Below, one piece after another: positions 2-48,108 of a stretch of DNA of 48,258 nt. Position 1 is the stretch's first letter. Each line of letters begins with the position of its first letter. Below the pieces are notes generated by a model. It saw nothing but the letters and a program-made list of their open reading frames with translations, made no database searches and was not told where the DNA came from. The translations under genes were made by a program, and so were the position numbers. The DNA comes from Deinococcales bacterium (GTDB lineage: Bacteria; Deinococcota; Deinococci; Deinococcales; JAAFIG01), in contig JANNVX010000046.1 in the NCBI GenBank assembly GCA_031414595.1, positions 1 through 48,258 on the forward strand, given 5' to 3'.

Positions 2-121
2 CGGGCGTATAACGAGTTGTTTGCAGAACGAATTATTCGTTTGTTGCCTTTGGAATTGAGCTTCGAGAAATACATTGTGTTGCTCGAGGACGCGCTTAAT
101 CTGGGAGTTAAGACTGCGTAA
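2..121 (+). CDS. 3' end of an upstream gene (partial, product unknown)
   Basis: Open frame from the window edge: RAYNELFAERIIRLLPLELSFEKYIVLLEDALNLGVKTA*, TAA at 119-121; contains a host-type CTCGAG. Confidence 0.55.
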   Translation, partial: RAYNELFAERIIRLLPLELSFEKYIVLLEDALNLGVKTA

Positions 122-135
122 AACATTCCAGACTA

Positions 136-2112
136 TTGTTAGTGATACTTGTTGTTAGTGGCTTCATTCTTGCAAAATCAGATGTGCAAATCAGCAACAG
201 TCCTGACTGGCTCGAAACTGAGCCTGGAAGTATTCGTCAAATAGGATTTGATAAAAACCAACGAAGGATTATTAGTGCTGGTTATGATGGGACAGCACGC
301 ATAACAAATGCGGCAACTGGTCAAATTATCACTACCTTGCAAGGACACGAAGCCAAAGAAATATTATCTGCTGAATTTAGTCCTAACGGAAATTTGGCAG
401 TGACCACTTCATTTCTTGATTTCACTGTTCGAGTTTGGAATACAATTTCTGGAGACCAAACACAGGTTTTTAAGTTTGATTGGAATGTTCGTTACGCAAC
501 ATTTAGTAATGATGGATTATTTATAGCCATTGCTGGTGATTTTGAAACAATTCAATTTTTTGATATTCAAAGTAAAAAGAAGCGGTTTTCAATTCCTATT
601 GAAGATGTTGCAACCCTGATTAAATTCAGTCCTGATGGTACAAAACTGCTCGTTGCAACTCGTAGTAAAGGGTTATATCTTTTTGATTTTAAGTCCAGAA
701 AGTTAATCAAAAAGTTTGTGGGTCATACAGAAGACGTTACATCAGCTTACTTTAGTTCAGATGGAAAACTGATTTCAACTGCATCGTATGATAAGTCTGC
801 TGGAATTTGGAATGCACAGACAGGTAAACCAGTTCGTTTTTTCAAAGGATTTAAAAACTACGTTAATGATGCTGTTTTTAGCCCTGACACCACCAAAATA
901 GCAATTGCAACTTTCTATGTTATGCACATCATGAATGTCAAATCTGGAAAGGAATTAAAACGCATAAACACTACATCAATGGGTTGTCATTCTCCAATCT
1001 TTACAAAAAACGGACAGCAGTTAGTAGCGGCTTGCTCAGATGGTTATGTTCGTTTTTGGGACACTCGTACTGGCAAAGAAATTCGGGGATTTCCTGTTCA
1101 TTCTGCTGAGATTGGTTCAGTTGTAATTAATCATAGCGCAACAAAGTTTAGTGCAACAACAATTGATGGTAAAGGTTCTGTGCGTGGACTAGATGGGAAA
1201 CCGATTTTTGAACTTGGTATTGGCAATGAATCAATCTGGGTTGGGGATTTCAGTTCGGATGATAAAAAATTCGTAACAAGTGGAGATTCACCTGACATTA
1301 AGATTTGGGATTCTGGAACAGGAGGTTTGATTGGCTCGCTAGGTGGGCATCTCAAAAATGAGGGACAAAATCCGCTCAATTTCAGTATTCCACTTGCTAT
1401 ATTTAGCCCTGATAACAAACAAATTGCTACAACTTCACCTGATGGAATTATTAGGCTTTGGGATGTTGATTCACAGGAATTACGACTAGAGCTTAAAGAC
1501 AAAAAAGAACTTATTCGTAAGTTAAAGTTTAGCCCAGATGGACAATATCTCGTTAGTCAATCAAATAACAACGCTAGAATTTGGAATGTAAAAACGGGCA
1601 AAAAACTACTTACACTACCAAAACAAATCAATGACACTCCAATATTGTTTAACTCAACAAGTAATAAAGCAATGATTTTTTATGGCATTTTCGACTTAAA
1701 AACTGGTAAATGGGAACGACTGGAAAAACGAGAACCGCAACAACCAAAAAACGAAGTACCACTCATGGTTGTGGATGGATATATTGAGCAAGACGGGAAA
1801 TTCTTTAACCTTATATTCAACAGTGGTTCTGTAGGTGTATGGGATTTTGAGGGTAGATTAATTCGTAAGACAAACCTTATTGGGCATACAGATAATATTT
1901 GGTTTGCTGTTTTTGCCCCAAGAAAAAATTTATTTGCAACAGGTTCTCCTGATGGCACGGTTCGTGTTTGGGACGCAAATAATGGAAACGAATTACAACG
2001 CTTTACAAATCATGCTGGTGGAGTATCGGCTTTGGCGATAACATCTGATGATCAATATATAATTTCTGGAGCAGGAAATGGATTAAGACGCTGGACAATA
2101 AAAGCAAAATAA
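136..2112 (+). CDS. WD40-repeat beta-propeller protein (probably two propellers), likely exported
   Basis: Many GH...FSPDG...D...RxWD repeats; hydrophobic N-terminus; start uncertain (see finding at 103-138). Confidence 0.9.
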   Translation: MLVILVVSGFILAKSDVQISNSPDWLETEPGSIRQIGFDKNQRRIISAGYDGTARITNAATGQIITTLQGHEAKEILSAEFSPNGNLAVTTSFLDFTVRVWNTISGDQTQVFKFDWNVRYATFSNDGLFIAIAGDFETIQFFDIQSKKKRFSIPIEDVATLIKFSPDGTKLLVATRSKGLYLFDFKSRKLIKKFVGHTEDVTSAYFSSDGKLISTASYDKSAGIWNAQTGKPVRFFKGFKNYVNDAVFSPDTTKIAIATFYVMHIMNVKSGKELKRINTTSMGCHSPIFTKNGQQLVAACSDGYVRFWDTRTGKEIRGFPVHSAEIGSVVINHSATKFSATTIDGKGSVRGLDGKPIFELGIGNESIWVGDFSSDDKKFVTSGDSPDIKIWDSGTGGLIGSLGGHLKNEGQNPLNFSIPLAIFSPDNKQIATTSPDGIIRLWDVDSQELRLELKDKKELIRKLKFSPDGQYLVSQSNNNARIWNVKTGKKLLTLPKQINDTPILFNSTSNKAMIFYGIFDLKTGKWERLEKREPQQPKNEVPLMVVDGYIEQDGKFFNLIFNSGSVGVWDFEGRLIRKTNLIGHTDNIWFAVFAPRKNLFATGSPDGTVRVWDANNGNELQRFTNHAGGVSALAITSDDQYIISGAGNGLRRWTIKAK

Positions 2113-2159
2113 GATCACTTGTTTACGTTCGTTTCATGACATGGGGATAAATATGTTTG

Positions 2160-2501
2160 TCAACTTAGCCCCGTTGCAAACCCTGTTAATTCTCGATTGA
2201 ATGGCGTTTGAAATGCCAGCATAATATCTTCTTTGGATACGCCTTGCTCGAGTAACAGCACCGCTAAGCTCGGTTCAGTAAAATCTTGTTCTATCCAAGT
2301 TTTATTGTTGCGAATACTGGCGTGCAAAAAGCAGTGGTAGACCCGTTTTGCTCCTTGTCAACCAATTCGCATCAGTTGGTAATTATCGGTGTTGCGGTCT
2401 GTTATCACTCGAGTTTCTGCGGTGCTGTCCGCTAAATCAGTGCTTTCATTATTTTTGAGAATGTTCTCGAGCGAATCGCGGTACTGGTTTAATCTATCCA
2501 T
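2160..2501 (-). pseudogene. xisI: XisI-family protein with an in-frame TGA at the conserved Trp
   Basis: Manual translation: MDRLNQYRDSLENIL...DNYQLMRIG*QGAKRVYHCFLHASIRNNKTWIEQDFTEPSLAVLLLEQGVSKEDIMLAFQTPFNRELTGFA; matches XisI motifs GW...RV, KIWIEED, GIPKEDIVLGF; TGA at 2358-2360. Confidence 0.85.
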
Positions 2502-2680
2502 TGAGTTATCGCTGCTTTAAGTTCATCGTACACAATCACACGAATTTTGGCTTCTTGAATCACGGCTTGGGCATACTCGAGGGCAAGAATGTTTGGTGTG
2601 CCACTTGGACGGCAGGATATAACTGACGTTTCGGCTCGAATGCGCGTACCATCTTCCGTGACAAAAAGCGTTGACTTACG
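2489..2680 (-). pseudogene. xisH: XisH-family C-terminal remnant (5'-truncated, frameshifted)
   Basis: ...FEPKRQLYPAV... then a frameshift into LEYAQAVIQEAKIRVIVYDELKAAITQWID*, resembling the XisH C-terminus (EPERxLYLAV...LIVYD...IxQW); overlaps the xisI start as in intact xisHI pairs; 5' limit approximate. Confidence 0.7.
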
Positions 2681-2776
2681 AATTTTCTGTCAAGACAGTT
2701 CCTAAATACCAAATCACTCAAAAAAATTTGATCATGCTTTAAGCACCAAAGCAATTTTTGTTTTACAATGACTCGC

Positions 2777-4408
2777 ATGGCTCATCCATTGGCTGGTTTA
2801 CCCGCTCCGATTGCCCTTCTCGAGAATATCCCGCGTTTGGTGGCGGCGTATTATGGCTTTGCGCCAGACCCAAGTAACCCAGCCCAGCGTGTGGCTTTTG
2901 GAACTTCTGGGCATCGTGGCTCGAGTCTCAAAAATACCTTTAATGATGCCCATATCGCAGCCATTGCCCAAGCCACCGCCGAGTACCGCACTTTTGTGGG
3001 GATTACAGGGGTCTTGTTTATCGGCGCAGATTCTCATGCTTTGTCTGAACCAGCCTTAAACACGGCACTCGAGGTGCTGGTTGCCAATGGTGTAGAAGTG
3101 CGTTTTGATCAGGATAGAGGTTACACGCCCACACCGCTTGTTTCTCATGCGATTTTAAGCGCCAATAAAAACAGTGGGCTGCAAGCCGACGGGATTGTGA
3201 TTACCCCTTCGCATAATCCACCCGAAGACGGTGGTTTTAAGTACAACCCACCAACAGGCGGACCTGCCGACAGCACTGTCACCAAATGGATTGAAAACCG
3301 TGCTAACGCGCTGCTCGAGAACGGACTTGAAGGGGTTAAACGCATCCCTTTAAGCGCGGCACTTGAGGCAGCCCACGGCTTTGACTTCGTTACGCCGTAT
3401 GTCGAAGATTTGGTCAATGTGATTGACCTTGAAGCCATAAAAAAAGCAGGTATAAAAATCGGGGTTGACCCACTGGGTGGCTCGAGTTTACCCGTTTGGC
3501 AAAAGATTTTTGATCGCTACAACTTGGATTTAACCATCGTCAATAACCGCATAGACCCAACTTTTGCCTTTATGCGGGTGGACAAAGACGGTAAAATTCG
3601 CATGGATTGCAGTAGCCCAAGTGCGATGGCGGGTTTAATTGAATTAAAAAACAGTTTTACAGTTGCCATTGGCAATGACCCAGATGCTGATAGACACGGC
3701 ATTGTCACCCCGAGCGGTTTAATGAACCCCAATCATTTTTTGGCGGTTTGTATCAATTATTTGTTCACCCATCGCCCAGACTGGAGCGCCAACATGGGTG
3801 TTGGCAAAACCCTTGTCTCGAGCAGCCTGATAGACCGAGTGGTCAAGCGCTTAAACCGCCGACTCGAGGAAGTGCCAGTTGGTTTCAAATACTTTGTGGA
3901 TGGGCTACTGAATGCCACAATTGGCTTTGGCGGCGAAGAATCGGCGGGTGCAAGCTTCCAGCGTTTTGACGGCAGCGCGTGGAGTACCGATAAAGACGGG
4001 ATTATTCTGGGTTTATTGGCGGCTGAAATCACGGCGGTGACAGGTGAAACTCCTGATGTCCATTACGCTAAACTCGAGGCGGAATTTGGCAAGAGCTATT
4101 ACAAGCGCATAGATGCCCCAGCCACTGCCAGCCAAAAGAAAACTCTATCGAACCTCAGCCCAGAAATGGTCAGTGCCACCACGCTGGCAGGTGAAATAAT
4201 CACGGCTAAACTGACTCGAGCGCCAAGCAATAACGAGCCAATTGGTGGCTTAAAAGTCTGCACCGAAAATGCTTGGTTTACCGCCCGTCCAAGCGGCACA
4301 GAAGAACTCTATAAAATCTATGCCGAAAGTTTTATCTCCGAAAGTCATTGCGAGGCGGTACTCGAGGAAGCCAAGAAAATAGTTTCCGATGCCTTTGAAG
4401 TGGCTTAG
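2777..4408 (+). CDS. pgm: Phosphoglucomutase (alpha-D-glucose-phosphate-specific)
   Basis: [15 protein letters not shown] (phospho-Ser), DPDADR metal loop, GGEESAG; start moved to ATG 2777 because TACAAT (2764-2769) lies 7 nt upstream. Confidence 0.96.
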
Positions 4409-4725
4409 GAATTGGCAGTGATTACAAAAGGCAAGACTTTCTGCTCGAGAATAGCAATTAACTCGGGCTGCATGTATTGGTAATGGTCTGGGATACCAAG
4501 GCAAATCACTCGCGGCTCGAATTTAGGAAAGAGGTTACGCAATTGTTTAATATGGCGTTGTTCCATCACAAAGACAATATCTGCCCACTCGAGGTCGTCA
4601 AGCCCTACCCGAGTTTCGGCATCTTTGGCTGTTCCAGCCGAACGCGTACTGGCGTACTCGGCAAAAATATGTTCAGCCGTTGGGCTGCGAAGTCGGTTTC
4701 TCGAGCAGATAAATAAAATATTCAT
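4405..4725 (-). CDS. Low-molecular-weight protein-tyrosine-phosphatase-like protein
   Basis: [15 protein letters not shown] (CX5R P-loop), [18 protein letters not shown]. Confidence 0.85.
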
Positions 4726-4810
4726 GGCATCTTGACTTTACTCAAGTTGCGTCTAAAATACATTCCTAGCGCCTCATTGTCTATCGCTGTCTTTTGCTTG
4801 GAGGATTTTC

Positions 4811-5101
4811 ATGGAAACCGTGCGCGTCTCAGGTCAGTCAAAACCCAATTCGGTGGCGGGGGCTATTGCTGCCCTGCTGCGGCTTCATGGTGAAGTCGAA
4901 GTCCAAGCCATCGGCGCAGTAGCGGTTAATCAGGCGGTCAAAGCGATTGCCATTACCAGGAGTTACTTAAGTGTGGACAACATGGATTTAATTTGCGTAC
5001 CGGCTTTTGTCAAACTCGAACTCGAAAGCGAGGAGCGTACCGCTTTGAAGTTCGTTTGCAAATCACACAAACTAGAAATTCACGAAATTCCCAAGCCATG
5101 A
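4811..5101 (+). CDS. spoVS: Stage V sporulation protein S family
   Basis: RVSGQSKPNSVAGAIA...QAIGAVAVNQAVKAIAITR; GGAGG RBS upstream. Confidence 0.93.
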   Translation: METVRVSGQSKPNSVAGAIAALLRLHGEVEVQAIGAVAVNQAVKAIAITRSYLSVDNMDLICVPAFVKLELESEERTALKFVCKSHKLEIHEIPKP

Positions 5102-6348
5102 GCCTGAATCTCGAGCCTACAGACCTTGAAATGCTGAACGGTCAGCACGGCGCAGCCTGTCAGTTTGCGATGAAATTATTGGTGCAGTATGCCCAGATGT
5201 TAGACGCTAAAAACCTGATTTCGGTGGTCGGAGCGCACATAGACGGTTGTTTATACCACGGACAAGCCAGTCTTGATTTTGCCGAGCGTTTGGTGCAATT
5301 TGGTGGAAAAGTGCGCGTTCCAACCACCTTAAATGTAGCTTCGCTTGACCGGCTGCACCCCGATTTATACCGTGGTGATGTGGTTATTGCCACCCAAGCC
5401 AGGGCTTTAATGGATGCTTATGAGGCGCTGGGTTGCACCGCAACCTGGACATGTGCGCCGTACCAACTGCCCAATCGTCCAGCCTTGGGCGAGCAGATTG
5501 CTTGGGCAGAATCCAATGCCATTGTTTTTGCCAACAGTGTCCTAGGCGCAAGAACCAATCGGTATGGAGATTTTTTAGATATTTGTGCCGCCATTACGGG
5601 GCGTGTCCCTGATGTCGGTTTGCACCAAACTGCCAATCGGCGTGGACAAATTGTTTTTTCACTCGAGCAGGTCAGTCCAGCGTGGCTCGAGGACAGTGTG
5701 TTATGCACCTTGCTTGGTTTTATTGTTGGAAAAATAGCTGGCTCGAGTATTCCTGTGTTGCTTGGGCTGCCAACTGGCACTTCTGAGGACGACTTAAAAG
5801 CCCTTGGTGCAACATCAGCTTCAAGTGGACGGGTTGCGATGTTTCATGCCGTGGGGATTACGCCCGAAGCCCCAAGTTTATCATCAGCATTGCAAGACCA
5901 AGCCCCTGAAAAAACCATTTTAATCACCGATACCGATTTACAAGAAGCACTCAATCGGTTAAATACCTTGGCAGTCGGTGCAAAACTGACCGCCATCAGC
6001 TTAGGCACACCACATTTTTCCTTAGCCGAATTTGCACGGTTAATACCGCTTTTAATGGGTTTACAGTGTCATCCAGCCCTCGAGTTTTTGGTCAGTACCA
6101 ACCGCAGCACTTTAGCCCAACTCGAGGAAAACGGCTGGTTGCAAGAATTGAAGCGTTTTGGAGCGCAAATTGTGGTGGACACCTGTACCTATATCACCCC
6201 GATTTTGCGTCAGGCAGACGGGGCAGTCATGACCAATTCGGGCAAATGGGCGCATTATGCGCCCGCCAATTTAGGCGTGACGGTGGCTTTTGGCTCACTG
6301 CGCGATTGTGTCCGTTCGGCTGTAGAAGGGCGTGTATGGCGCGAATAA
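5098..6348 (+). CDS. Aconitase X catalytic (large) subunit, DUF521
   Basis: AHIDGCLY, TCAPY, AWAESNAIVFANSVLGARTN, GTPHFS, DTC, TNSGKWAHY; start ATG 5098 overlaps the spoVS stop (ATGA). Confidence 0.9.
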   Translation: MSLNLEPTDLEMLNGQHGAACQFAMKLLVQYAQMLDAKNLISVVGAHIDGCLYHGQASLDFAERLVQFGGKVRVPTTLNVASLDRLHPDLYRGDVVIATQARALMDAYEALGCTATWTCAPYQLPNRPALGEQIAWAESNAIVFANSVLGARTNRYGDFLDICAAITGRVPDVGLHQTANRRGQIVFSLEQVSPAWLEDSVLCTLLGFIVGKIAGSSIPVLLGLPTGTSEDDLKALGATSASSGRVAMFHAVGITPEAPSLSSALQDQAPEKTILITDTDLQEALNRLNTLAVGAKLTAISLGTPHFSLAEFARLIPLLMGLQCHPALEFLVSTNRSTLAQLEENGWLQELKRFGAQIVVDTCTYITPILRQADGAVMTNSGKWAHYAPANLGVTVAFGSLRDCVRSAVEGRVWRE

Positions 6349-6749
6349 TCCATGCCAAAAGCCTTGTGGCTGGAATTGCCCAAGGCACAGCCCAAAAACT
6401 CGAGCCACTGAGTTTTTGGGGAGGTTTTGACAGCCGTACAGGGTGTGTCACCGAACCATCACATTCTGGGTACGGCATGTGTCTAAGCCAAAAAATTGTG
6501 GTCATGGAATCTGGACGCGGCTCGAGTTCCAGTTCCAGTGTGCTTGCCGAAGCCATCCGCCTAGGCACAGCCCCCGCCGCATTTTTACTGCTCGAGGTGG
6601 ACACGATTTTGGCAACTGGCGCACTGGTGGCAGCCGAATTATACCAACTCGAGTGTCCAATTATGGTTTTAACCGCCCAAGAATGGGCGCAACTCGAGAC
6701 TGGAATGCAGCTTCGCCTCGAGTCTGGCACAGTATTTATCGAGGATTGA
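6336..6749 (+). CDS. Aconitase X swivel (small) subunit, DUF126
   Basis: EPLSFWGGFDSRTG, GRGSSSSSSVLAE, APAA; ATG 6336 lies inside the listed 6066-6749 ORF. Confidence 0.88.
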   Translation: MARIIHAKSLVAGIAQGTAQKLEPLSFWGGFDSRTGCVTEPSHSGYGMCLSQKIVVMESGRGSSSSSSVLAEAIRLGTAPAAFLLLEVDTILATGALVAAELYQLECPIMVLTAQEWAQLETGMQLRLESGTVFIED

Positions 6750-6785
6750 TAGCATCGTTGTGCTTGGCGCGTTACACTGCTGACC

Positions 6786-7613
6786 ATGATTCTTGGTTTA
6801 GATTTTGGCATGACCAACCTCGATGGTGTGTTGCTCGAGCATAATGTTTTGCAACGTGGTTGGCGGATGGACTGTACCGGCGCAAGCCTTGACTCGACAA
6901 GGGCGGCACTTGGCGAAGGTGGGGTGCAACTCGAGACCCTCAAAGCCATTGGTACAACAGGCGGACGACACCGTGAACTGCCAACTTCGTTTAAGGGTAT
7001 CCCCGTGGTTAAAGTCGGCGAAGCCGATGCGGTTGGGCGAGGTGGTTTATTGATGGCGGGTCTGACCGAAGCGCTGGTGGTTTCGGCAGGCACGGGTACA
7101 GCCATGATTGCCGCAAGGGGCAAAACTTGTCAGCATGTGACGGGCAGTGCCGTGGGAGGCGGGACGCTCTTGGGTTTGGCTAAACTCTGCCTTGGGACTG
7201 CCGACCCACTCGAGATTGCCTACCTAGCGGCGCTTGGCAATCCTGCCGCAGTGGATGGCACACTTGCCGATGTGATTGGCGGTGGTATCGGTAGCCTCCC
7301 TGCTGATGCCACGGCGGTCAATCTGGGGCGAATCGTTAAACTGTCATCAGCCCCATCCCGCGAAGATTTAGCGGCGGGTTTGGTGACTTTGGTTTCGCAA
7401 GTGATTGCCGTGATTGCCTTAAATGCTGCCAAAGCCAATGGCTTAGAGCAGATTGTGATTGTCGGGCATTTACCCGACCTCGAGCCAATACAGAAAGCCA
7501 TCCACCGAGTTTGGGGATTTTATGGGGTCAGTACCCCAGCGATTATTCCGACTGACCGAGGCTACGCCACAGCCCTAGGCGCGGCACTGGTGGCAGGGGA
7601 TACGATAGAATAG
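6786..7613 (+). CDS. Fumble-family (type II pantothenate kinase-like) ASKHA kinase
   Basis: GLDFGMT, TTGG, E..AVGRG, VVSAGTGT, GSAVGGGTLLGL, ATALGA. Confidence 0.8.
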   Translation: MILGLDFGMTNLDGVLLEHNVLQRGWRMDCTGASLDSTRAALGEGGVQLETLKAIGTTGGRHRELPTSFKGIPVVKVGEADAVGRGGLLMAGLTEALVVSAGTGTAMIAARGKTCQHVTGSAVGGGTLLGLAKLCLGTADPLEIAYLAALGNPAAVDGTLADVIGGGIGSLPADATAVNLGRIVKLSSAPSREDLAAGLVTLVSQVIAVIALNAAKANGLEQIVIVGHLPDLEPIQKAIHRVWGFYGVSTPAIIPTDRGYATALGAALVAGDTIE

Positions 7614-7617
7614 AGAC

Positions 7618-8391
7618 GTGAAACCATTACTTGCCTTAAATTGGAAACTTCAAAAAGGTCCTGCCGAAAGCTACGCTTGGGGTCGGGCGCTGCTCGAGCA
7701 ACTGCCAGAAGAAATGAGCGCTGACCTCGCGGTGGTTGCACCTTCGGTCAGCTTAGACCGCCTCGGCAATGCCCTGCGTGGCTCTGAGGTGCGTTTGGGC
7801 GCTCAGGATGTCTCGCAGTATTCCAAAGGGGCGTATACAGGCGAAGTCGCGGTGCAGTGGCTGAACGAACTCGATTGTGCTTATGTGGTGATTGGGCATT
7901 CTGAGCGCCGCGAATACCACAATGAGACCGACATCATGGCTGGTGAAAAAACGGCTGTGGCAATCCGTGGCGGAGTCAAACCAATTTTATGTGTTGGCGA
8001 AAAACTCGAGACTCGAGAAGCAGGTCATGCCGAACAGTACACCCTTGGTCAACTGGAGACCGCCTTGGCATGGCTAACCCCAGAATTAGTGCAGAGTGAA
8101 TTTGCGGGTAGCCTCGAGTGGCTGACTGTGGCTTATGAACCGATTTGGGCGATTGGCACAGGCAAAACCGCTACACCAGACGATGCCGAGAACATGGGCA
8201 ACGCGATGCGAACGTGGTTTGTGGGCAAATACGGCGCAATTGCCAACGATATGCGTTTATTGTACGGCGGCAGTGTCAAACCCGATAATATCAAAGCCTT
8301 GTGTAGCCGCCAAAATGTCAACGGCGCGTTGGTCGGTGGGGCAAGTCTTGAACTCGAGAGTGTTTTGAAGATGCTCGAAGCATTGGCGTAA
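7618..8391 (+). CDS. tpiA: Triosephosphate isomerase
   Basis: NWK, GAYTGE, IGHSERR, AYEPIWAIGTG, LYGGSVKP, GALVGGASL. Confidence 0.97.
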   Translation: MKPLLALNWKLQKGPAESYAWGRALLEQLPEEMSADLAVVAPSVSLDRLGNALRGSEVRLGAQDVSQYSKGAYTGEVAVQWLNELDCAYVVIGHSERREYHNETDIMAGEKTAVAIRGGVKPILCVGEKLETREAGHAEQYTLGQLETALAWLTPELVQSEFAGSLEWLTVAYEPIWAIGTGKTATPDDAENMGNAMRTWFVGKYGAIANDMRLLYGGSVKPDNIKALCSRQNVNGALVGGASLELESVLKMLEALA

Positions 8392-8410
8392 ATTGCGGTA
8401 ACATTGCACC

Positions 8411-10390
8411 ATGCCGCTTTCCCTTGGTGTCTGCGATTACCCCGAACACATCCCAGCCGACGAATGGGCTGTGTTTCCTAAAAAAATGCGTGAGCTTGGC
8501 TTAACCTATGTGCGAATTGGTGAGTTCGCTTGGTCTAAACTCGAGCCAAGTGCAGGCAATTACCAATTTGCGTGGTTGGATGCTGCCATAGATGCGCTTC
8601 ATGCCGAAGGTTTGCGGGTGGTTCTCTGTACACCCACCGCAACCCCGCCAGCTTGGTTGGTACGCTTGCACCCCGAAATTTTACCAGTAGATGCCCACGG
8701 GCGAGTGCGTGAATTTGGCTCGAGACGACATTATGATTTCTCGAGCGATGTTTACTGGCAAGAATCGGCGCGAATTATCGAGGTACTGGCAAAACGTTAT
8801 GGCAATCATCAGGCAGTAGTGGGTTGGCAAACTGATAACGAGTATGGCTGTCACGACACCACCCGTTCGTACAGCTTGCAAGCCAAACAAAAATTTCAGG
8901 GCTGGCTCGAGAAAAAATACACTGCACTCGAGGCGCTTAATGCTGCGTGGGGCAATGTTTTCTGGTCGCAAGAATACGGTGCTTGGTCAGAGATTGGCTT
9001 ACCCAATTTAACTGTCACCGAAGCCAATCCTAGCCATGTCCTCGACTTCATGCGCTTCTCGAGTGACCAACTGATTGGCTACGACCAAATGCAAACCCAG
9101 ATTCTTCGCACCCACAGCCCAAACCGTTTTGTGACCCACAATTATATGATTTTCTTCTCGGACTTTGACCATTACAAAGCCGCCGCCCATTTGGATTTTG
9201 TGACTTGGGATAATTACCCGACGGGAATGCTCGAGTTTTTTGATACTTCCGAGGAGAACAAACTGGCGTTTGCCCGTACTGGACACCCCGATTTAATCAG
9301 TTTTAACCACGACCTCTACCGAGGACTGAAAAATAAGCCTTTTTGGGTCATGGAACAACAATGTGGTCAGGTCAATTGGTCGCCGTATAACCCTCTGCCC
9401 GCACCAAACGCAGTCCAACTCTGGACACTGCAAGCCATCAGTCACGGCGCAGATTCAGTCACTTATTTTAGATGGCAAGCCGCAAGGCAAGCCCAAGAAG
9501 ATTACCATTCGGGTTTACTCAGGCATGATGGCAGCGAAGACAGGGGCTTTTTAGAAGTCAAACGCCTCGCACCAAAATTATCAACATTGTCCGATGTCCT
9601 CGAGCCACACAAGGTTTGTCTGCTTCACGATTACGAATCCTTATGGGCATACGACGTTCAAAAACACAACGCAAGTAGTTCGTACTGGCTACAAGTCCAA
9701 TCTTTTTACACGCAACTGCGCCAAGTTGGTGTAGACCTCGACATCCAACACCCGATGTCGGACTTAAGTGCCTACGACCTGATTATTGCCCCCGCCCTCA
9801 TTGTTGGCTCACCCGAATTAGCCGCCCACCTCGAGCAGTACGCCGAAAATGGCGCAACCATTGTTTTTGGCACGCGCACTGGTTTTCGTGACCCGACTGG
9901 CGCAATCCCCAAAGAAAACCCGATGACCAAGCTGGCGGGGGTGAGGGTCAAAAACTTTGACAGCCTCCGCCTCGGACTGACCCCCAGAATCGAAGCCTTT
10001 GACCAAACGTTTGAAACCCACACCTGGAACGAATCCCTAGAAATCCTTGACCCGAACATCAGAATTCTAGGCACATACTTCGACGACCCGCTCTATAACG
10101 AGGCTGGCATCACCTACCGACCCTTAGGCAAAGGCGGCATCATCTACATTGGTGTTTGGGGTGAACGAATCCTAGGACGCACCCTCGAGTATGCCCTATT
10201 TCGGGCTGGCATCACCCACCAAGACTTAGAGCATGGACTGCGCCTGACCAAACGCGGCGGACTGGTTTACGCCCAAAACTGGACTCGAGGCGGAATTGCT
10301 CTTCCGCTAGACCCAGACACCGAATTTTTAATTGGGGACAGCTTAATCGAACCTTACGGTGTGGCGGTTTATAAAGAAGGCAAAAGTTAA
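8411..10390 (+). CDS. Beta-galactosidase, glycoside hydrolase family 42
   Basis: [48 protein letters not shown]. Confidence 0.93.
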
Positions 10391-10610: not shown

Positions 10611-10623
10611 TTATACTCTCCCC

Positions 10624-12059: not shown

Positions 12060-12253
12060 TTCAAACCCACAGAAGCTGCCAAGTCTTGAATGCTAATCCG
12101 CCCTTCTAGCGGTTCTGGTTGAGATAAAATGATTTTCATTTCATCGCTCAATTCTAAACCCGCGTCTGGGTCGGTTTCACGCAGGGTTTCACGCACGGTT
12201 TCCTGAATAATAAACCGCAATTCGGCGACTGTTAAATCTGCGACTCGTTGCAT
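12047..12253 (-). CDS. Putative cognate antitoxin
   Basis: 68-aa acidic ORF upstream of and overlapping the toxin; VADLTVAEL...DPDAGLEL; TAGAAT 6 nt upstream of the ATG. Confidence 0.75.
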   Translation of the reverse strand: MQRVADLTVAELRFIIQETVRETLRETDPDAGLELSDEMKIILSQPEPLEGRISIQDLAASVGLKWSV

Positions 12254-36934: not shown

Positions 36935-36958
36935 AAAATATCCTTTATAAGTATATTG

Positions 36959-38275
36959 TCACGCAGATAGAGGGTTTTTTACTTTCAAAGAAGTCGGATT
37001 TCGGAGTCTAGAACCGTTTTGTTCTTCAGCATATAAAACGCCAAGTAAAAAAATAAAAGTTCTGCCTGTAAAATTTTGATACAACATTGGTTCCTTGATT
37101 TCAAAGATAAGTAGTACAAGTAAAATAGGAATCAATAGCAGTAATGCTTTTTTGTTTTTATAAAATTTAAAAACATACGCAATAAAAATTCCATAAAATA
37201 AAAGGCTTCCTATAATTCCTATGGAGAAGATGGTTTTTATAAATCCAGAATCTGAACGCCCATATTTATAACCATCACCCTCAAAATATCCAATGCCAAA
37301 TAAAAGGTGTACTGGATCGCTGGGTAAAAATAACATTTGTTCCGTTAGTATTTTAAAAGAAGATGTATTTGCTAATCCGTTATCAAATAATTCAGAAGAC
37401 CATGTAGCAAGTTCCAGATTATTTTCACTCGCTGTCAAAAAAGAAGTATAAGAAAAATAGAATACAATCAAAAAAATGGGAATAACAAAAAATTTAAATT
37501 TTCCAATGACAGATACATTGAACATGGATTTGTAAAATAAATAGAAAAAATAAATAGAAAAATAAATTAGTACACCTACTAAACCCGTTCTTCCGATCAA
37601 AAAAGTAGCAAACGAGATAATTATTGCAAATAGAAATGTGGTCGGGATATCGATCTTTTTCAAAATATTTAAATAAAAAATTAGCCAAATACTTAATGCA
37701 AGATAAGCTGACATTGCAGCACCACCAGCCGCTGAAAACCCTCGCGCTCGGAATGAAGTTTCATAATCAATGTTTGCCAAAGGGTCTTGATATAAAAAAC
37801 CTTCAATAAAGTCTTTAAGGCTCGGAATAACAAACTGAGCTATAATTATTATAGAGTGGACCAGTGAAACCATTACCATCGTATATACAATTATTTTTTT
37901 ATGTCTGCTATGACCATTTGTATTTAGAGCATATTGTCTACTCAAAATAAATCCCAAAATGAAGTATACGATAGTAGAAATGGGATAGGTATAAAAAATC
38001 TGATTTTCAAAACCATAGATATGGGAAATGAATAAAAAGTATAAAGATAAAAAAATTAATACTGAAGCAACTATTAAATGCTTTACATTTAATGATTTTT
38101 TAATCGAAGCAACAATAGTAGGAAATGCAAAAAAAAAGAGTAGTACAAACGATAAATTCCCAAGATTAAACCCGCCAAGAAAATTAACCCTAGGTGTAAG
38201 TAAAAATAAGTAAATAATAAAAAACACCAATATCTTGTTGGAAGAGTCACTTAAAGAATTCATACTAATTATCAT
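36959..38275 (-). CDS. wzy: Putative Wzy repeat-unit polymerase
   Basis: Very AT-rich polytopic membrane protein (about 10-11 TMs), RARG, LFGIG, DSG, located between GT genes. Confidence 0.7.
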   Translation of the reverse strand: MIISMNSLSDSSNKILVFFIIYLFLLTPRVNFLGGFNLGNLSFVLLFFFAFPTIVASIKKSLNVKHLIVASVLIFLSLYFLFISHIYGFENQIFYTYPISTIVYFILGFILSRQYALNTNGHSRHKKIIVYTMVMVSLVHSIIIIAQFVIPSLKDFIEGFLYQDPLANIDYETSFRARGFSAAGGAAMSAYLALSIWLIFYLNILKKIDIPTTFLFAIIISFATFLIGRTGLVGVLIYFSIYFFYLFYKSMFNVSVIGKFKFFVIPIFLIVFYFSYTSFLTASENNLELATWSSELFDNGLANTSSFKILTEQMLFLPSDPVHLLFGIGYFEGDGYKYGRSDSGFIKTIFSIGIIGSLLFYGIFIAYVFKFYKNKKALLLLIPILLVLLIFEIKEPMLYQNFTGRTFIFLLGVLYAEEQNGSRLRNPTSLKVKNPLSA

Positions 38276-38276
38276 A

Positions 38277-39206
38277 TTAGGCTCTGTTTTTTAGCAAGAA
38301 TCGAAGACACGTATTAAAAAGATGGTAAATTGACTTTAAGTAATATATATTGAAAAATCGGAACGAAAAAATTACTTTAAAAAAGTAGTAACTTGCATTT
38401 AATATATCTTTATTTAGTCCATAAGAAATACCTGAAAAATAGTACAATCGAATCCTACCATTATTCGCAAATTTTTTATACTTAGGATGCGTAAATTCTA
38501 CTATGTCTAAGGTTAACGCACAGTCTACCATTCGTTTGTTATTAATAGTATCTGTGATATTATTTGAATGTCGTTTGTAAATACCCAATACTTCTTTTAT
38601 ATAGCCATAAGAAAAATCATTGTTTGTTAGCGCATCAATGCATAATTTCCAGTCAGATACAACAAGTAAACGTTCATCATACCCGTACTCTGGAATACAC
38701 GACCTACGAAACATAATTGACATTGCACAATAAGGCTGCCCATATTCAATGATTTTTGTGCAACCTGAACCTTCAAACGGATATTGCCTTTGACTATACA
38801 AGCCCAGTGATTTTGATTGTAGAGTGCTATACACATCCACATCATGTCCACAAAATGCTAAATTTGAATTTTCCTGTAACCTATCCACCTGTTTTGATAC
38901 TTTTTCCGAATGTAACTCATCATCTCCACCCATAAGAACAACAAAAGTACCCTTACAGGCACGAAGGACTATGTTTGAGTTTTTTGTTATTCCTAAGTTT
39001 ACAGCATTAAAGATATATCGAATACGACCTGGGTATTTCTCTACAAACTGAATAATAATGTCTCTCGTTTTATCTTGCGAGCAATCATCAGCGACAATTA
39101 CCTCAAAATTATCATAGGTCTGATTAAGACAAGATTGCAAACAGTCCCCAATTAAATCTTCTTGGTTATAGGTAATGATTCCTATTGATACTAATTCATT
39201 GATCAT
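38277..39206 (-). CDS. GT2 glycosyltransferase
   Basis: VSIGIITYN, VADDCSQD, GDD, SDW; ATG 39206 overlaps the wzx stop (ATGA). Confidence 0.9.
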   Translation of the reverse strand: MINELVSIGIITYNQEDLIGDCLQSCLNQTYDNFEVIVADDCSQDKTRDIIIQFVEKYPGRIRYIFNAVNLGITKNSNIVLRACKGTFVVLMGGDDELHSEKVSKQVDRLQENSNLAFCGHDVDVYSTLQSKSLGLYSQRQYPFEGSGCTKIIEYGQPYCAMSIMFRRSCIPEYGYDERLLVVSDWKLCIDALTNNDFSYGYIKEVLGIYKRHSNNITDTINNKRMVDCALTLDIVEFTHPKYKKFANNGRIRLYYFSGISYGLNKDILNASYYFFKVIFSFRFFNIYYLKSIYHLFNTCLRFLLKNRA

Positions 39207-40663
39207 AGATTTACCCTCAGTTGATTGACAGATTTTATGTTGAGTAATTTTGCACAAGTTAGCAAAAAAATAATTGAAAAAGTAAAAATTATAGCCAGCT
39301 TATAGATATTAAATTGCTGTTCGTTCCACATTAAAATCGAAGAAAAAATAACTAAGGCAAGACCAAAAAGCCAAATTACTAGTACTTTTCTATCAAAATA
39401 CATGCCAAGTTTACTTACAATGTAAATATTCATAACAATAAAATGCAGTATATATATCAATGAAAATCCCAGACCCAGCAACTCTAATTCATTAAACGGA
39501 GTCAAAAGATATACTGATGTCAACAATGTTAGACTAAAAGCCAATTCAGTTATCAAAATACTTTTTTTATCCCCAAAAGCAAGCATACAAGTCCCCAAGA
39601 CCCAACTCAAAAGTTTAAAATAATCCCCTATGAGCATCCAGTTTAACTGCTCTATTGATTTTGAAAATTCTGAGGAAAAAAGAATAAGAATTAACAGATT
39701 TTTTACTCCTATAATAAGCGGAATTAGCAAACCGCCAAGTATAGTGGTGAATAAAAAAACGTTTTTTAGCAATACTCTTTTATCTTCTTTTAATTTTAGT
39801 TCGCTCATTTTTGGTAATAAATATGTCGAAAATGAAGTTGTCATTAGCGTAATGTATACAGTACTTAAATTCCACGCTGCCTCAAAGTTACCCAAAAAAA
39901 TTATACCGTTTTTCTCTAAAATCATACCCTTAATTGCAAGTAAAGTTAAACTGGTAACTATGGAGGTTAAAGCCACTGTCAAAGAGAAGAGAAGAAATGA
40001 AGTCATTTCTTGCGGTACAATGCAAAGCTGCCGAGTGTAGAGTTTTTGTAGGAGATTTTTCTTCCACATAATATGAAGCAGAAAAAAAAGTGAAGAAACC
40101 AGAGGAATAAGAATTAAAAATGATAAAACCGCATAAGACTGCATTGAATTTGCGAAATTAGAGATTTGAAAGGAAATCAAACATAAAATAAAACTACTAA
40201 CAACTTGGGAAATGGCAATTTCTTTCAGGTAATTATGAATGTTTAAGTAACCAAAAAAATAACCATTGAGTCCCCCAAAAATAAGCGCAATTGCTAACAC
40301 ACGAATGGTATCTATTGCTTGTTGCGTATTTTGCTTTAATGCAATAGCTGATACAATTGGAGCGAATAAAATAACAGCTAAAGAAACAAGAATTGAGATG
40401 GTTAAAAATACATAAAATGTTGCCTTAAGAAACTTATCTCTCTGCTCACCTTGCTTTGACGAAGCACCTTGCACCAAAGCTGTTTGTCCACCAAGTGTTG
40501 TAAGAGTAATTCCAGATACATATACTTGGCGAATTAAACCTAGTTGCCCAACACCACTAGGTCCTAAGACAACAGCGACTATTTTCATTGCAATACTCTG
40601 AAGAATAAATGTCAATAACGTACTTGTTGATGTTAGAAAAAACACCTTAGAGATGCTAAGCAT
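39203..40663 (-). CDS. wzx: Wzx flippase
   Basis: KIVAVVLGPSGVG, YLLPKMS, LFSSEF, GDYFK; about 12 TMs. Confidence 0.85.
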   Translation of the reverse strand: MLSISKVFFLTSTSTLLTFILQSIAMKIVAVVLGPSGVGQLGLIRQVYVSGITLTTLGGQTALVQGASSKQGEQRDKFLKATFYVFLTISILVSLAVILFAPIVSAIALKQNTQQAIDTIRVLAIALIFGGLNGYFFGYLNIHNYLKEIAISQVVSSFILCLISFQISNFANSMQSYAVLSFLILIPLVSSLFFLLHIMWKKNLLQKLYTRQLCIVPQEMTSFLLFSLTVALTSIVTSLTLLAIKGMILEKNGIIFLGNFEAAWNLSTVYITLMTTSFSTYLLPKMSELKLKEDKRVLLKNVFLFTTILGGLLIPLIIGVKNLLILILFSSEFSKSIEQLNWMLIGDYFKLLSWVLGTCMLAFGDKKSILITELAFSLTLLTSVYLLTPFNELELLGLGFSLIYILHFIVMNIYIVSKLGMYFDRKVLVIWLFGLALVIFSSILMWNEQQFNIYKLAIIFTFSIIFLLTCAKLLNIKSVNQLRVNL

Positions 40664-41294
40664 ATACAGTGCCTAGTATCTTTGCAGGATTTCCACCAAC
40701 TATTGCACCACTAGGAACACTTTTAGTAACAACTGCTCCAGCACCGACTACTGCATCTGTTCCTATCTCGACACCTTTAAGAATGATTACATTACTGCCC
40801 AACCAAACATTATCTCCCAACCTGACTGATTTAGGAATACTTGCTTTATCGCGTTCCGTAGGTGCTTTTTCATGAAAATCAGTATCATAAATAACACAAT
40901 TTGAACCAATTCGACAATTTTTACCAATAGAAATCAGTATGCAGGCAATGAATTGACAACCATTCATAATCGTCGTACCCTTAGCTATCAAGATTTGCGA
41001 GTTGGTATTTCTTGGCTGTAGCATAATCGCAGGTGTCACTCCGCCTAGCCAATAACCTAAGCTGACTTGATCTTCTAGGACTAATTTTCCTAAGCCCATA
41101 AAATAGACAGGTTGATTAAGCCTCACATTTTTTCCTAAAACCACTTGTCCACCATGAAAAAAGGCAGATAACAGGAGTTTTAATTTTCTTAAATAATAAA
41201 TAGGATTTAGTTTTACGATCACCAAGATTGGCGAAGCAATAACACTTTTTGTTAAAGTCCTCAGTTTTTTCCAGTTATTTGAACTATCCATCAA
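40656..41294 (-). CDS. Hexapeptide-repeat O-acetyltransferase
   Basis: [35 protein letters not shown]. Confidence 0.88.
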
Positions 41295-42397
41295 ACTGTT
41301 CCCATTCTATTTAGAAAGCCGACTAATTCTGCTGTGACCTGCTCAGATTGTTGAGGACCAATTGGCAAACTTAAAACTTCAGCATGAATTGACTCGCTGA
41401 TCGGAAATGAACCTTTCCTCATTTTTAAGTCAGAATAAGCTTCTTGAAGATGTGGAGGTATTGGATAATGAATCAAATTCCCAACATTATTATCATCAAG
41501 ATATGTTTGTGTTTTCATACGATCTGTGTAGCGCACAACAAATAAATGCCAAACAGGGTCTGCCCAATCGGGTACAAAGGGTAATATTAAATCCGTACAA
41601 TCCAACTGCTCGAGATAGGTATGAGCAATTACTTTCCTGCGGCTGTTCCATTCATCCAGAACCTTAAGTTTAACCCTTAAAGTAGCCGCTTGAATTGGAT
41701 CAAGGCGACTATTATAACCAATGATTTCATTAACATATTTAACTTTTGACCCATAATTGCGGAGCATTTTAATTTTTTCAGCAATTTCAGGGTCATTTGT
41801 GGTGACTGCACCTGCATCTCCCATTGCTCCTAGGTTTTTGCTAGGGTAGAAACTCCATGCAACAGCATCTCCATGTCCACCAATTCGCTTGCCTTTGTAC
41901 CGTGCACCATGAGCTTGAGCGCCATCCTCGAGAACCCGCAGGTTGTGGCGTTTTGCAATCTCGAGAATTGGGTCTAGGTCTGCTGGTTGACCATAAAGGT
42001 GAACTGGAATAATAGCCTTGGTACGTGGTGTAATTGCAGCTTCGATTAAATCTGGGTTGATGTTATAGGTACGTTCGTCTGGTTCTACAGGAACTATTGT
42101 TGCACTTGTATAAGAAACAGCTAACCAAGTGGCGATATAGGTGTTGCTTGGAACAATCACTTCGTCGCCTTCGCCAATGCCAAATGCCTTTAAGACAAGA
42201 TGCAAAGCATCCAAACCATTACCAACACCAACGCAATACTTAGTATCACAGTAGTCAGCATACTCAGCTTCAAATGCTTCAACTTCTGCTCCACCAATAT
42301 ACCAACCCGAATCTAGTACCCGCAGCACAGCAGCATCTATTTCAGGCTTTAACTCGAGATACGCAGCACGCAAATCCAAAAAAGGTATCTTATTCAC
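41291..42397 (-). CDS. fdtB: DegT-family sugar 3-aminotransferase (FdtB/QdtB-like)
   Basis: [37 protein letters not shown]. Confidence 0.88.
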
Positions 42398-47045: not shown

Positions 47046-47064
47046 TAGTACACCTTTCCAAATT

Positions 47065-48108
47065 TTATTTCTCTACAATAGCCAATAATCGCTCTGGTAC
47101 TTCCCAAATAGCCAGCTTGGGAGTTGTATCTAAAACTATACTAAGAAAAGATTTCATTGGTGCAACAAAACCCTTGCCTTCAAGTGCTAAATTTAACACA
47201 TCTAAGCCAAGAGCAGATTTTAATTCATCGGCAAAACCAAAATTTGTATTGGCACTGTAGCTTGTTCCAACCAGAGCAACTTCAATCGGGGCATCCCCCA
47301 GTAAGCCACCACTTGAACTCGAGATTTCCACTCGAGGAATTTCTAAAAATTCTGTTTTGATAGCACCATAACGACCTAGCGGAATAAACTTTGCTAAATC
47401 CCCTGAGTATTCTTTTCTGCTACTTTCCAATCGTGTTGTTTGAACTCGAGTCAAGGAAAGTGATTCTGTAACACTCTGAATGCTTTTTGCCACTGCTTGC
47501 GCCCCTAGGGGTGTCCAGTGTGTGTCAGTTTTTACAAAGACAGCACCTTCTTTCTTGGCTTTCTCGAGAGCAGTAAGTGTATCCACTGCCCATACCCCTT
47601 TTTGCTCGAGTGATGCCAAAAACGCAGAATACACTGGCTTCCAGTAATCAGGGACTCGATAACGCCCCAAAAACTCTGGATAGACTCGAGCTTTGGCGGG
47701 TAGGGGAACAACAAGCAACTGAATTCCCTTATTTTCTAGAATTTTCTTAACGTCCACAATGTACTGGATTTTCTTCTGAATCTCGGCTTCAAAATTCGGT
47801 GCTTTAGCGAACTCTTCATCGGAATATAACCAGCCTTCATCACCAACTAAAACACCCATACGACCTGTAGAAAAAATGGCGTATTCAAAAGCACTCCAGA
47901 GATTGATAGCTTCTTGAGTTATTGGTGATGAATCACTGAGTAATTTTTCAAATTGACGATTCCACTCACCAGTCAGCACACTTTGATTTTTTGGCATTAG
48001 TTTGGAATTTAGTGTCAAAAAATTTAATCCAAACCCCAAGGTTAGAATAGTCAGAAAAAAGATTATTATGGTTATTTGATTTCCCTGATTTGTGTTTTCT
48101 CGAGACAT
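47065..48108 (-). CDS. AlgJ-like SGNH O-acetyltransferase, membrane-anchored
   Basis: GVLVG.EGWLY..EE, PAKARVYPE, KTDTHW, LVGTSYS, WEVPER; start ATG 48108 has a GGAG RBS. Confidence 0.85.
   Translation of the reverse strand: MSRENTNQGNQITIIIFFLTILTLGFGLNFLTLNSKLMPKNQSVLTGEWNRQFEKLLSDSSPITQEAINLWSAFEYAIFSTGRMGVLVGDEGWLYSDEEFAKAPNFEAEIQKKIQYIVDVKKILENKGIQLLVVPLPAKARVYPEFLGRYRVPDYWKPVYSAFLASLEQKGVWAVDTLTALEKAKKEGAVFVKTDTHWTPLGAQAVAKSIQSVTESLSLTRVQTTRLESSRKEYSGDLAKFIPLGRYGAIKTEFLEIPRVEISSSSGGLLGDAPIEVALVGTSYSANTNFGFADELKSALGLDVLNLALEGKGFVAPMKSFLSIVLDTTPKLAIWEVPERLLAIVEK

Follow-up and report, generated by a model that had tools for sequence, protein, structure and literature searches.

Why is one six-base palindrome, CTCGAG, written over and over through a stretch of deinococcal DNA, and what keeps it there? 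The stretch in question (the window, 48,258 bases) is contig C46 of the Deinococcales bacterium assembly designated G000 here, which comprises 4.49 Mb (4,488,778 bases) in 120 contigs and is 94% complete. The window holds 196 exact copies of the hexamer, the first at 83-88 and the last at 48099-48104, and because the word is a palindrome this field (83..48104) belongs to both strands. In 100 dinucleotide-preserving shuffles the mean was 5.05 copies and the maximum was 11, and a count of at least 196 was reached in 0/100. An earlier note, made by eye, had described CTCGAG as a highly iterated palindrome (HIP) like the HIP1 of cyanobacteria; its observation is confirmed and proves stronger than first put. 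The force behind the pattern operates on the DNA itself rather than on mRNA or protein, works on the six bases in all-or-none fashion, and treats coding and non-coding sequence alike.

CTCGAG in the window, the genome, and the proteome

Genome-wide, G000 contains 23,235 copies of CTCGAG in 4,488,778 bases, or one per 193 bp (5.2/kb), for a zero-order observed/expected ratio (O/E) of 23.9. It is the top-ranked hexamer of this genome, with three times the count of the runner-up. Densities on the 78 longest contigs range from 2.6 to 8.6/kb, mostly 4-6/kb, and all 837 of 837 five-kilobase windows hold at least six copies. Counts in these windows are over-dispersed (mean 25.9, variance 40.4), and the spacing between copies is near random, with a coefficient of variation of 0.99. 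Base composition next to CTCGAG is almost uniform, which sets the length of the word at exactly six, and 69% of the genome's TCGA tetramers fall within it.

The counts that had been made by eye for four genes of the window were exact when the site list was compared with the open reading frames (ORFs) and their domains: 10 in pgm (2768..4408, plus strand), 11 in the gene for a GH42 beta-galactosidase (8411-10390), 15 in that for an AAA/PD-(D/E)XK protein (25167-26693), and 7 in an AlgX/AlgJ-like gene (47065-48192). Arithmetic from the coordinates also places the pgm sites in three frames as had been claimed, with six read as CTC-GAG, one as xCT-CGA-Gxx, and three as xxC-TCG-AGx.

Coding sequence was defined by crude ORF-based gene calls (3,832 ORFs, 88% of G000). 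The density of CTCGAG is 5.37/kb in non-coding DNA and 5.15/kb in coding DNA, and the coding copies divide into 12,051 in the CTC-GAG frame (59%), 3,972 in the xCT-CGA-Gxx frame, and 4,270 in the xxC-TCG-AGx frame. Synonymous shuffling over 20 rounds, with all proteins and the genome's codon usage preserved, predicts 1,021, 324, and 221 copies, respectively, where 12,065, 3,981, and 4,280 were counted in the same comparison; the frame-by-frame check proposed by the earlier note gives excesses of 12-, 12-, and 19-fold. These are conservative values, since the codon usage applied already includes the motif. Among 20,112 Leu-Glu dipeptides, 60% are written CTC-GAG, and yet away from the motif CTC makes up 7.9% of Leu codons and GAG 20% of Glu codons, for an independent expectation of 1.6%. 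Given this disparity and a per-frame excess of 12- to 19-fold, the enrichment survives codon control and is not confined to the Leu-Glu frame, the two points on which the earlier note had staked its claim. Its argument that no protein or codon-pair artifact is at work is borne out, with non-coding density equal to coding density and all frames enriched after shuffling.

The word has also left a footprint in the proteome. Leu-Glu has the highest O/E of all dipeptides (2.23, compared with 0.98 for Glu-Leu), and Ser-Ser, the dipeptide favored by the third frame of CTCGAG, stands at 1.50; by arithmetic, the proteome carries about 11,000 surplus Leu-Glu pairs. The DXR gene of the window (19560..20759, plus strand), whose nearest named relatives (n = 4) are listed, at 72-91% identity, as uncultured Deinococcales bacterium or as a metagenome-assembled Deinococcales bacterium, in keeping with the lineage named by the earlier note, served as a test case. 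Eight of its 11 sites are read as CTC-GAG, two as xCT-CGA-G, and one as xxC-TCG-AG, and at 9 of the 11 the encoded residues are seldom or never seen in the matching position of 76 homologues drawn from other phyla. In two examples, IE (71/76 homologues) has become LE and DSA (72/76) has become DSS, and the protein contains 11 Leu-Glu pairs compared with a mean of 4.2 in other phyla. CTCGAG has altered proteins, overriding conservative amino acid positions.

Retention of the exact hexamer and its spread across Deinococcota

Retention of the word was followed in orthologous DNA of G000 and G005 (67.6 kb aligned, 93.3% identity). The two genomes have 338 CTCGAG sites in common, 40 are found only in G000, and 36 are found only in G005, so that the comparison of gain and loss among relatives suggested by the earlier note gives a balance between them. 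CTCGAG is conserved at 89% of sites compared with 70% for other hexamers, and the gap widens to 69% versus 24% against G003 and 66% versus 16% against G006. Between G000 and G005, the third position of CTC has changed in 6/209 codons before GAG compared with 41/166 elsewhere, and that of GAG has changed in 9/212 codons after CTC compared with 41/185 elsewhere. The same holds for CGA (3/62 in the motif, 19/112 elsewhere) and TCG (1/57 and 29/178), with 17.1% of four-fold sites changed overall. Taken together, synonymous positions in the motif show 5 to 9 times fewer changes than the same codons elsewhere. Outside genes, 36/38 motifs are kept compared with 73.6% of other non-coding hexamers. Divergence is reduced to an O/E of 0.29-0.58 across exactly the six motif bases, and the flanks are at background, about 1.

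Sequences one base away from the word behave differently from the word itself. Six of 16 CTD-GAG sites of G000 are CTC-GAG in G005, compared with 33/857 for CTD codons elsewhere, and 5/14 CTC-GAA sites differ compared with 43/673 other GAA codons; in neither case is the direction of change polarized. Depletion of one-mismatch neighbors, which the earlier note had named as a check, is seen in part: among the 18 neighbors in G000, transversions lie below expectation (O/E 0.16-0.70) and transitions do not (1.06-1.26), with no asymmetry of position. Because the 18 neighbors are not enriched, the advantage is confined to the perfect word. One-mismatch counts are alike at positions 1, 2, and 3, and the site differences between G000 and G005 number 18, 9, and 13 for position pairs 1/6, 2/5, and 3/4, respectively; neither data set shows the bias of one-base deviations toward outer positions that marks a nested core of the HIP1 type.

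Turnover of sites is also visible within the genus. When a stretch of the AAA_16 gene (15919..18603, plus strand) was aligned for seven member genomes, 43 columns contained a site and only 2 were common to all seven, several patterns were homoplastic, and Leu-Glu positions alternated between CTCGAG and the preferred spellings TTAGAA, CTTGAA, and CTAGAA. Differences of more than one base were considered as a signature of patch replacement and rejected, as the 13/17 seen in 28 kb fell to 42% of differing sites, versus 27% in control hexamers, over the full 67.6 kb. Flank divergence at differing sites is 10.2%, compared with 8.65 ± 0.56% for Hamming-matched controls (P = 0.0045), which fits tract-borne turnover and is not proof of it. 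Among 40 listed variants from public runs (1,655 more exist), none fell in the motif and about 1.3 were expected, a count that is uninformative for motif sites.

The family of the window, f1, which includes G000, was sampled through 18 members in five genera, and all 18 carry 4.3-6.8 CTCGAG/kb. The guanine-plus-cytosine (GC) content of their DXR loci runs from 0.47 in the window to 0.62-0.65 in G013 and G010. A phylum survey covered 251 sampled Deinococcota genomes together with bulk DNA of selected genomes. The highest value is that of G255 (family f3, genus g37; GC 0.51), with 7.2/kb (O/E 28), 8.0/kb in non-coding DNA, a Leu-Glu O/E of 2.34, and 81% of these pairs as CTCGAG. G202 (f3, g36; GC 0.675) has 3.7/kb (O/E 10.7), a Leu-Glu O/E of 1.93, and 73% as CTCGAG. 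All frames are enriched in both G204 (f5, g13; GC 0.66; 4.1/kb, non-coding 4.0/kb) and G107 (f5, g22; GC 0.65; 3.6/kb, non-coding 3.2/kb), and G059 (f2; GC 0.61) has 2.2/kb. Genera g13 and g22 include genomes that are 99-100% complete, at 3-4/kb. At the lower end, G022 (g9; GC 0.69) has 0.9/kb, close to codon expectation, and G203 (f3, g37; GC 0.50) has 0.27/kb (O/E 1.08), a Leu-Glu O/E of 1.29, 7% as CTCGAG with 8% expected, and synonymous-shuffle ratios of 0.9, 0.9, and 1.2 by frame. The word is depleted in G020 (f3, g7; GC 0.66), with 0.02/kb (O/E 0.06), a Leu-Glu O/E of 0.95, and 1% as CTCGAG, and it is low in 92/92 sampled genomes of genus g7.

The DXR of G255 is 71% identical to that of G203, 69% identical to that of G202, and 62-64% identical to those of the window's family. 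As DXR groups G255 with G203 and G202, genus g37 does contain both a genome with the trait and one without it. In the DXR gene of G203, Leu-Glu is kept by other codons at 5/15 positions where G202 or G255 has CTC-GAG; these codons, from one gene, and the mildly raised Leu-Glu of the genome point to a secondary loss of the trait in G203.

The earlier note had placed the system in "this Deinococcota lineage." A DNA-level system there is upheld by its presence in 18/18 members of f1, by equal coding and non-coding densities, by synonymous conservation limited to the hexamer, and by enrichment in all frames. The scope holds in that the word is present throughout the family, but is too narrow in that the trait is graded over the phylum. 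The trait is inherited through the family, is variable in strength across the phylum, and accrues only with residence time.

Where the word is rare, and the layout of the window

Evidence for residence time comes from DNA that lacks the word. In G000, 11 CTCGAG-free gaps of at least 2 kb were found against a Poisson expectation of 0.7, and 11/11 have a GC content of 0.32-0.44; the genome's low-GC methyltransferase genes also contain few copies. One of these 11 gaps is the 2.2-kb stretch at 89..2246 of the window (GC 0.376), and within it the gene for a WD40-repeat protein (136-2112, 658 amino acids, GC 0.376, zero CTCGAG) is probably foreign. The site list and the ORF and domain scan then define a motif-saturated native segment at 2247..27330, with 154 sites in 25.1 kb (6.1/kb) and a GC content of 0.45-0.54. 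It encodes Pgm, AcnX, TIM, the GH42 beta-galactosidase, an aminotransferase, a histidine kinase, and a deacetylase, as well as the AAA_16 protein, an arginase-family protein, DXR, an MFS protein, and polysaccharide genes. Beyond it lies a low-GC (0.33-0.40) cluster of the polysaccharide/O-antigen type at 27331..41608, with 15 sites in 14.3 kb. Genes here (27331-42400) encode a Wzy-like protein, a sugar transferase, epimerases, glycosyltransferases, asparagine synthase, a flippase-like protein, an acetyltransferase, and an aminotransferase. The longest CTCGAG-free gap of the whole of G000 (36,667-41,608 of the window) lies within this cluster, which is probably recently acquired DNA in which saturation is still incomplete.

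A dispersed repeat of about 160 bp is likewise free of the word. Its window copy (10407-10569) is bordered by the direct repeat GGGCAAAAGTA, and about 35 blastn matches, 69-94% identical, occur in G000 (e.g., on C75, C104, C17, and C97). Neither G001 nor the contigs of two public runs have the repeat at this position, so it is best described as a mobile insertion resembling a miniature inverted-repeat transposable element. The predicted folding is strong, with -52 kcal/mol for a single fold, a value without a shuffle control, and there was no Rfam match in the window, this region included. In 3,306 bp of its copies there are 0 CTCGAG with 17 expected. The 69 tRNA and tmRNA genes (5.68 kb) contain 7 copies, compared with 29 predicted from genome density and 1.2 from composition. 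Five tRNA genes (Ser, Ser, Cys, Thr, and Glu) lying within 3 kb on contig C56 (144-2945) have one CTCGAG each, and 2/64 of the other tRNA and tmRNA genes have the word. Since CTCGAG is rare in islands, in the repeat, and in tRNA genes, it builds up with residence time and yields to strong functional constraint. For these genomes it is a sharp marker of native versus foreign DNA.

A few smaller features remain. The window contains a CTCGAGNCTCGAG doublet at 8005..8017, and such pairs, with a spacing of 7 bp, occur 101 times in G000 and are over-represented among short spacings; many stand at the apex of inverted repeats that resemble hairpins or terminators. Pairs spaced by 6 are never seen because they would create GAGCTC, which is avoided. 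No 16S gene was matched in G000 by a conserved primer motif, and neither an rRNA operon nor an origin was located in its 120 contigs. A scan of viral contigs for tight CTCGAG triplets returned, among the matches listed, mostly high-GC tandem repeats and is silent on the phages of this lineage.

Explanations for the word and comparison with known systems

The reading that we favor, with a probability of roughly 0.35, is that CTCGAG is a self word of the HIP or uptake-sequence type, with a fixation bias for the exact hexamer that is driven by DNA exchange. We favor it because the phenomenology matches that of uptake sequences and of the current uptake proposal for HIP1. The bias would favor exact CTCGAG wherever it arises in resident DNA and oppose its loss, giving about 5 copies/kb. 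A symmetric protein of high specificity would read the word in its duplex form, and the bias would arise in DNA exchange between members of a population through preferential uptake and/or recombination of word-bearing fragments. This would be the same molecular drive as that of uptake signal sequences (USS) and DNA uptake sequences (DUS), which is now proposed for HIP1 as well. Methylation of CTCGAG may form part of the recognition, although no methyltransferase could be tied to the word here. By arithmetic, the scaled bias required would be about ln(24), roughly 3.2, whether it is supplied by selection or by a conversion-like drive. Stated more broadly and just as tentatively, CTCGAG may be the word of a methyltransferase-independent system of self-DNA recognition, acting as a signal for uptake or recombination or else as a mark for repair or the nucleoid; such a system would have originated in Deinococcota and could be switched off within a genus, as G203 and G255 would illustrate. 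The uptake signal and the self-mark, both offered as examples in the earlier note, fit the phenomenology at least as well as its methyltransferase link.

Several points weigh against drive by DNA exchange. Uptake bias, recombination bias, and the reader protein are all steps that we infer. Known uptake sequences lack symmetry, span 9-12 bases, and are found about once per kilobase, and uptake at the level of fragments should require nothing nearly as dense as a six-base palindrome at 5/kb; palindromic hexamers are the words classically recognized by Type II enzymes. ComEC and DprA, which are present in G000, are found in 10/10 genomes, including motif-neutral G203 and depleted G020, so core competence genes do not discriminate by CTCGAG status. 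The raised flank divergence could merely mark faster-evolving regions, the multi-nucleotide excess at differing sites (42% vs 27%) is modest, and the near-random spacing argues neither for nor against drive. G203 also has no match to four methyltransferase families, one data point for a link to methylation. Finally, CTCGAG is methylated in other organisms, for example as 5-methylcytosine in a Halorubrum according to the accessible part of PMC8112702, and a 2026 preprint on hot-spring communities, in the portion available, gives CTCGAG as a methylated motif.

This last evidence supports the leading alternative, which we regard as possible but on balance doubtful. In methylation-coupled biased repair or gene conversion (Elhai's HIP model), a CTCGAG methyltransferase would mark the word and mismatches in near-cognate sites would be resolved toward it, both creating sites and restoring them. 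Type II enzymes typically recognize six-base palindromes, methylated CTCGAG does occur in nature, and restoring repair would yield strong site retention as seen. HIP1 and alternate HIPs co-occur with cognate methyltransferases in the accessible part of PMC4390886. In G000 itself methyltransferase matches are numerous, with 5 of the C5 class, about 9 Eco57I-like, about 9 N4/N6, and several of the HsdM type (>25 in total). Motif-neutral G203 (2.3 Mb, 5 contigs, 95% complete) has no match to PF01555, PF07669, PF02384, or PF00145, its sole D12 match being an unrelated conserved gene, and appears from these profile searches to be a reduced genome without DNA methylation.

The search for a responsible enzyme nevertheless speaks against methylation-coupled repair. 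The statement of the earlier note that no cognate methyltransferase lies in the window was correct, as 34 ORFs were scanned there and none has a DNA methyltransferase domain. Elsewhere candidates were compared by orthology; specificity is not readable from sequence, and non-orthologous enzymes could share one. The C5 enzyme L085 was rejected, having an orthologue only in G007 (92% identity) and short fragments in G001, G003, and G006, as was the TaqI-like L086, which carries TaqI_C and has a single weak match in f1; G000 is the sole genome with a TaqI_C match. L094, shared by four genomes (G000, G010, G013, and G255), proved to be a Type I HsdM with about 62% identity to HsdM proteins of wide distribution, and L111 is a Type ISP enzyme; neither was retained. 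The D12 genes were also set aside, as they share 26-37% identity between genomes and are not orthologous, except for a module of G013 and G255 that is missing in G000. No PF01555 match was found in G013, no match to PF00145 (C5) in G010, and no methyltransferase common to G202 and G000 at 35% identity or above. Vsr (PF03852) has no match in the 94%-complete G000, and the XhoI endonuclease family has none either, with a positive control that was silent in every genome, so that the sensitivity of this search is unproven. MutH was rejected because it occurs in 1/8 genomes searched (G000 only) and adjoins a D12 methyltransferase as an ordinary GATC-type pair. The link to a methyltransferase that the earlier note drew from the HIP1 precedent is therefore unsupported, in that none of the methyltransferase orthologues, and no gene of the Vsr, MutH, or XhoI type, follows the distribution of CTCGAG.

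The neighbors of the word give no better support. The products of deamination are not depleted (CTTGAG/CTCAAG, O/E 1.06-1.08; TTCGAG/CTCGAA, 1.20-1.26), C-to-T neighbors are not depleted relative to T-to-C neighbors, and the bias must cover each of the six positions, for which repair of deamination gives no account. With no Vsr, no conserved C5 enzyme, and these neighbor counts, a Dcm/Vsr-type signature is missing; with MutH in a single genome and non-orthologous D12 genes, so is a mark of the Dam/MutH type.

Two observations concern restriction-modification genes in their own right. On contig C1 of G000 (26904-28480; L195, L341), the gene for a D12-class adenine methyltransferase lies directly before that for a MutH/Sau3AI-like protein; the two probably form a restriction-modification pair specific for GATC, and such a pair would account for the depletion of GATC. 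G013 and G255, from different families, have in common an HsdM (69% identity) and a D12 methyltransferase (73%) together with the neighbor of the latter (53%; L155/L158, L200/L197), and because the methyltransferase identities exceed that of DXR (62%), exchange of restriction-modification modules between the two lineages is suggested.

A second alternative, which we consider unlikely, is direct selection of CTCGAG as a chromosome-wide mark for replication, repair, strand discrimination, or nucleoid structure, a six-base stand-in for GATC in genomes where GATC is depleted. At one per 193 bp the word is near the density of GATC in Escherichia coli, which is about one per 240 bp, and GATC has an O/E of 0.14 here. 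The density in f1 also remains steady at 4.3-6.8/kb while the GC content of the DXR locus spans 0.47-0.65. Positional conservation within and between ORFs, the argument made for HIP1 by Xu et al. in the accessible part of PMC5861425, holds here too. Selection for a minimum density should, however, space the word evenly, and what is seen is near-random spacing with over-dispersed 5-kb counts. Conserved residues have been overwritten though silent and non-coding placements were available, and G203 and genus g9 manage without the word. There is no conserved orphan methyltransferase among the candidates compared, and the MutH of G000 belongs to its GATC-type pair.

Mutation shelter is a much weaker account, and we consider it improbable. 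Bound or modified perfect sites would mutate less and accumulate through a low exit rate, and as enrichment is the ratio of entry to exit, a large drop in exit alone could suffice in principle. Change in the motif is indeed 2 to 9 times lower than outside it, but this falls short of 24-fold. Entry from one-off sites looks raised (6/16 vs 33/857, with direction not polarized), and the pool of one-off sites is below expectation, an outcome that slower exit by itself would not produce. A related fitness-valley model, in which one-off sites are harmful, was discarded on theoretical grounds, since at equilibrium it depletes one-off sites and cannot enrich the perfect word.

The extreme avoidance of other palindromes in G000 bears on the last alternative. 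Palindromic hexamers fall below an O/E of 0.1 in 34/64 cases compared with 81/4,032 non-palindromic ones; GGCC has 152 copies (O/E 0.01), several hexamers have 2-6 copies, and CGATCG has 3. The many methyltransferase matches fit this near-absence. Avoidance is also found in G005 and G255 and is not found in G202, G203, or G020. G202, with few methyltransferase genes and 3/64 palindromes avoided, has CTCGAG at 10.7-fold, so a heavy restriction load is not what gives rise to the enrichment. An artifact of coding (Leu-Glu richness or a codon or codon-pair preference) or a by-product of palindrome avoidance, for which the 59% of coding sites in the CTC-GAG frame and the 34/64 avoided palindromes could be cited, is thus refuted by the equal non-coding density, by the 12- and 19-fold excess in the other two frames, by the absence of Glu-Leu enrichment, by the minor share that CTC has among Leu codons (7.9%) and GAG among Glu codons (20%) away from the motif, by G202, and by G020, which has methyltransferase matches and is nevertheless depleted of CTCGAG.

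Whichever force proves responsible, the word skews the statistics of codons, dipeptides, and k-mers, with consequences for binning, gene calling, and the detection of horizontal gene transfer in this group. In the literature searched, which was incomplete, we found no prior report of CTCGAG abundance in Deinococcota or as a highly iterated palindrome, and the word does not appear in the accessible part of Elhai 2015 (PMC4390886).

Among known systems, very-short-patch repair by Dcm/Vsr at CCWGG in E. coli is a methyltransferase-linked repair that shifts oligonucleotide frequencies toward its own site. CTCGAG differs in having no Vsr match, no conserved C5 enzyme, and undepleted deamination neighbors, and the effect of Dcm/Vsr is an order of magnitude smaller. 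Restriction-site avoidance is extreme in G000 for other palindromes and is seen in genus g7 for CTCGAG itself, but in f1 the sign is reversed for this word, with a 24-fold excess.

Drive by DNA exchange, the reading preferred here, draws on the likeness to USS and DUS. Like them, CTCGAG is present in thousands of lineage-specific copies. In the accessible part of PMC2817400, tripeptides encoded by USS are approximately doubled and USS are missing from genes without homologues, and here Leu-Glu is raised 2.23-fold and recently acquired genes lack the word. For such sequences molecular drive would in principle suffice, and competence genes are present in G000. The differences are that USS and DUS are asymmetric, longer, found at about 1/kb, and of demonstrated uptake bias, whereas CTCGAG is palindromic, occurs at 5.2/kb, uses minor codons, and is known here from sequence alone.

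The closest likeness is to HIP1 (GCGATCGC) and the alternate HIPs, also hyper-abundant short GC-containing palindromes, with an excess of 15-300-fold for HIP1 in the accessible part of PMC5861425 and 24-fold for CTCGAG. Both are scattered over genes and spacers, fall in every frame of the ORFs, stay in place between relatives more often than background sequence, vary among lineages, and have an unsettled function. A periodic arrangement on a scale of 10-90 kb is a further trait of HIP1. HIP1 differs in being a cyanobacterial word of eight bases; CTCGAG is a six-base word of Deinococcota, in a genome where CGATCG has only 3 copies, and it shows neither the outer-position bias of one-mismatch variants nor a cognate methyltransferase among the candidates compared. 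We conclude that CTCGAG is an analogue of HIP1 and not HIP1 itself. Its density of about 5/kb exceeds the roughly 1/kb of HIPs given in the available portion of PMC4390886. Cyanobacterial HIPs have been known for three decades and their function is still argued, with repair, chromosome structure, and, most recently, service as an uptake signal (PMC13756078) among the proposals in those parts of PMC4390886, PMC5861425, and PMC13756078 that were available. What the sequence comparisons add is an independent HIP-type element outside the cyanobacteria, with a different and shorter word, a higher density, and a demonstrated proteome footprint, that is, a measurable cost to protein sequence. To our knowledge, no such element reaches a higher density. 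It also offers contrasts that HIP1 lacks, namely congeners of the same GC content at 7.2 and 0.27/kb, a graded series of families, and one genus that avoids the word, and these make phylogenetic profiling for the responsible gene and tests in cultured relatives feasible. If this reading is correct, the reader of an independent CTCGAG system would reveal what highly iterated palindromes are for.

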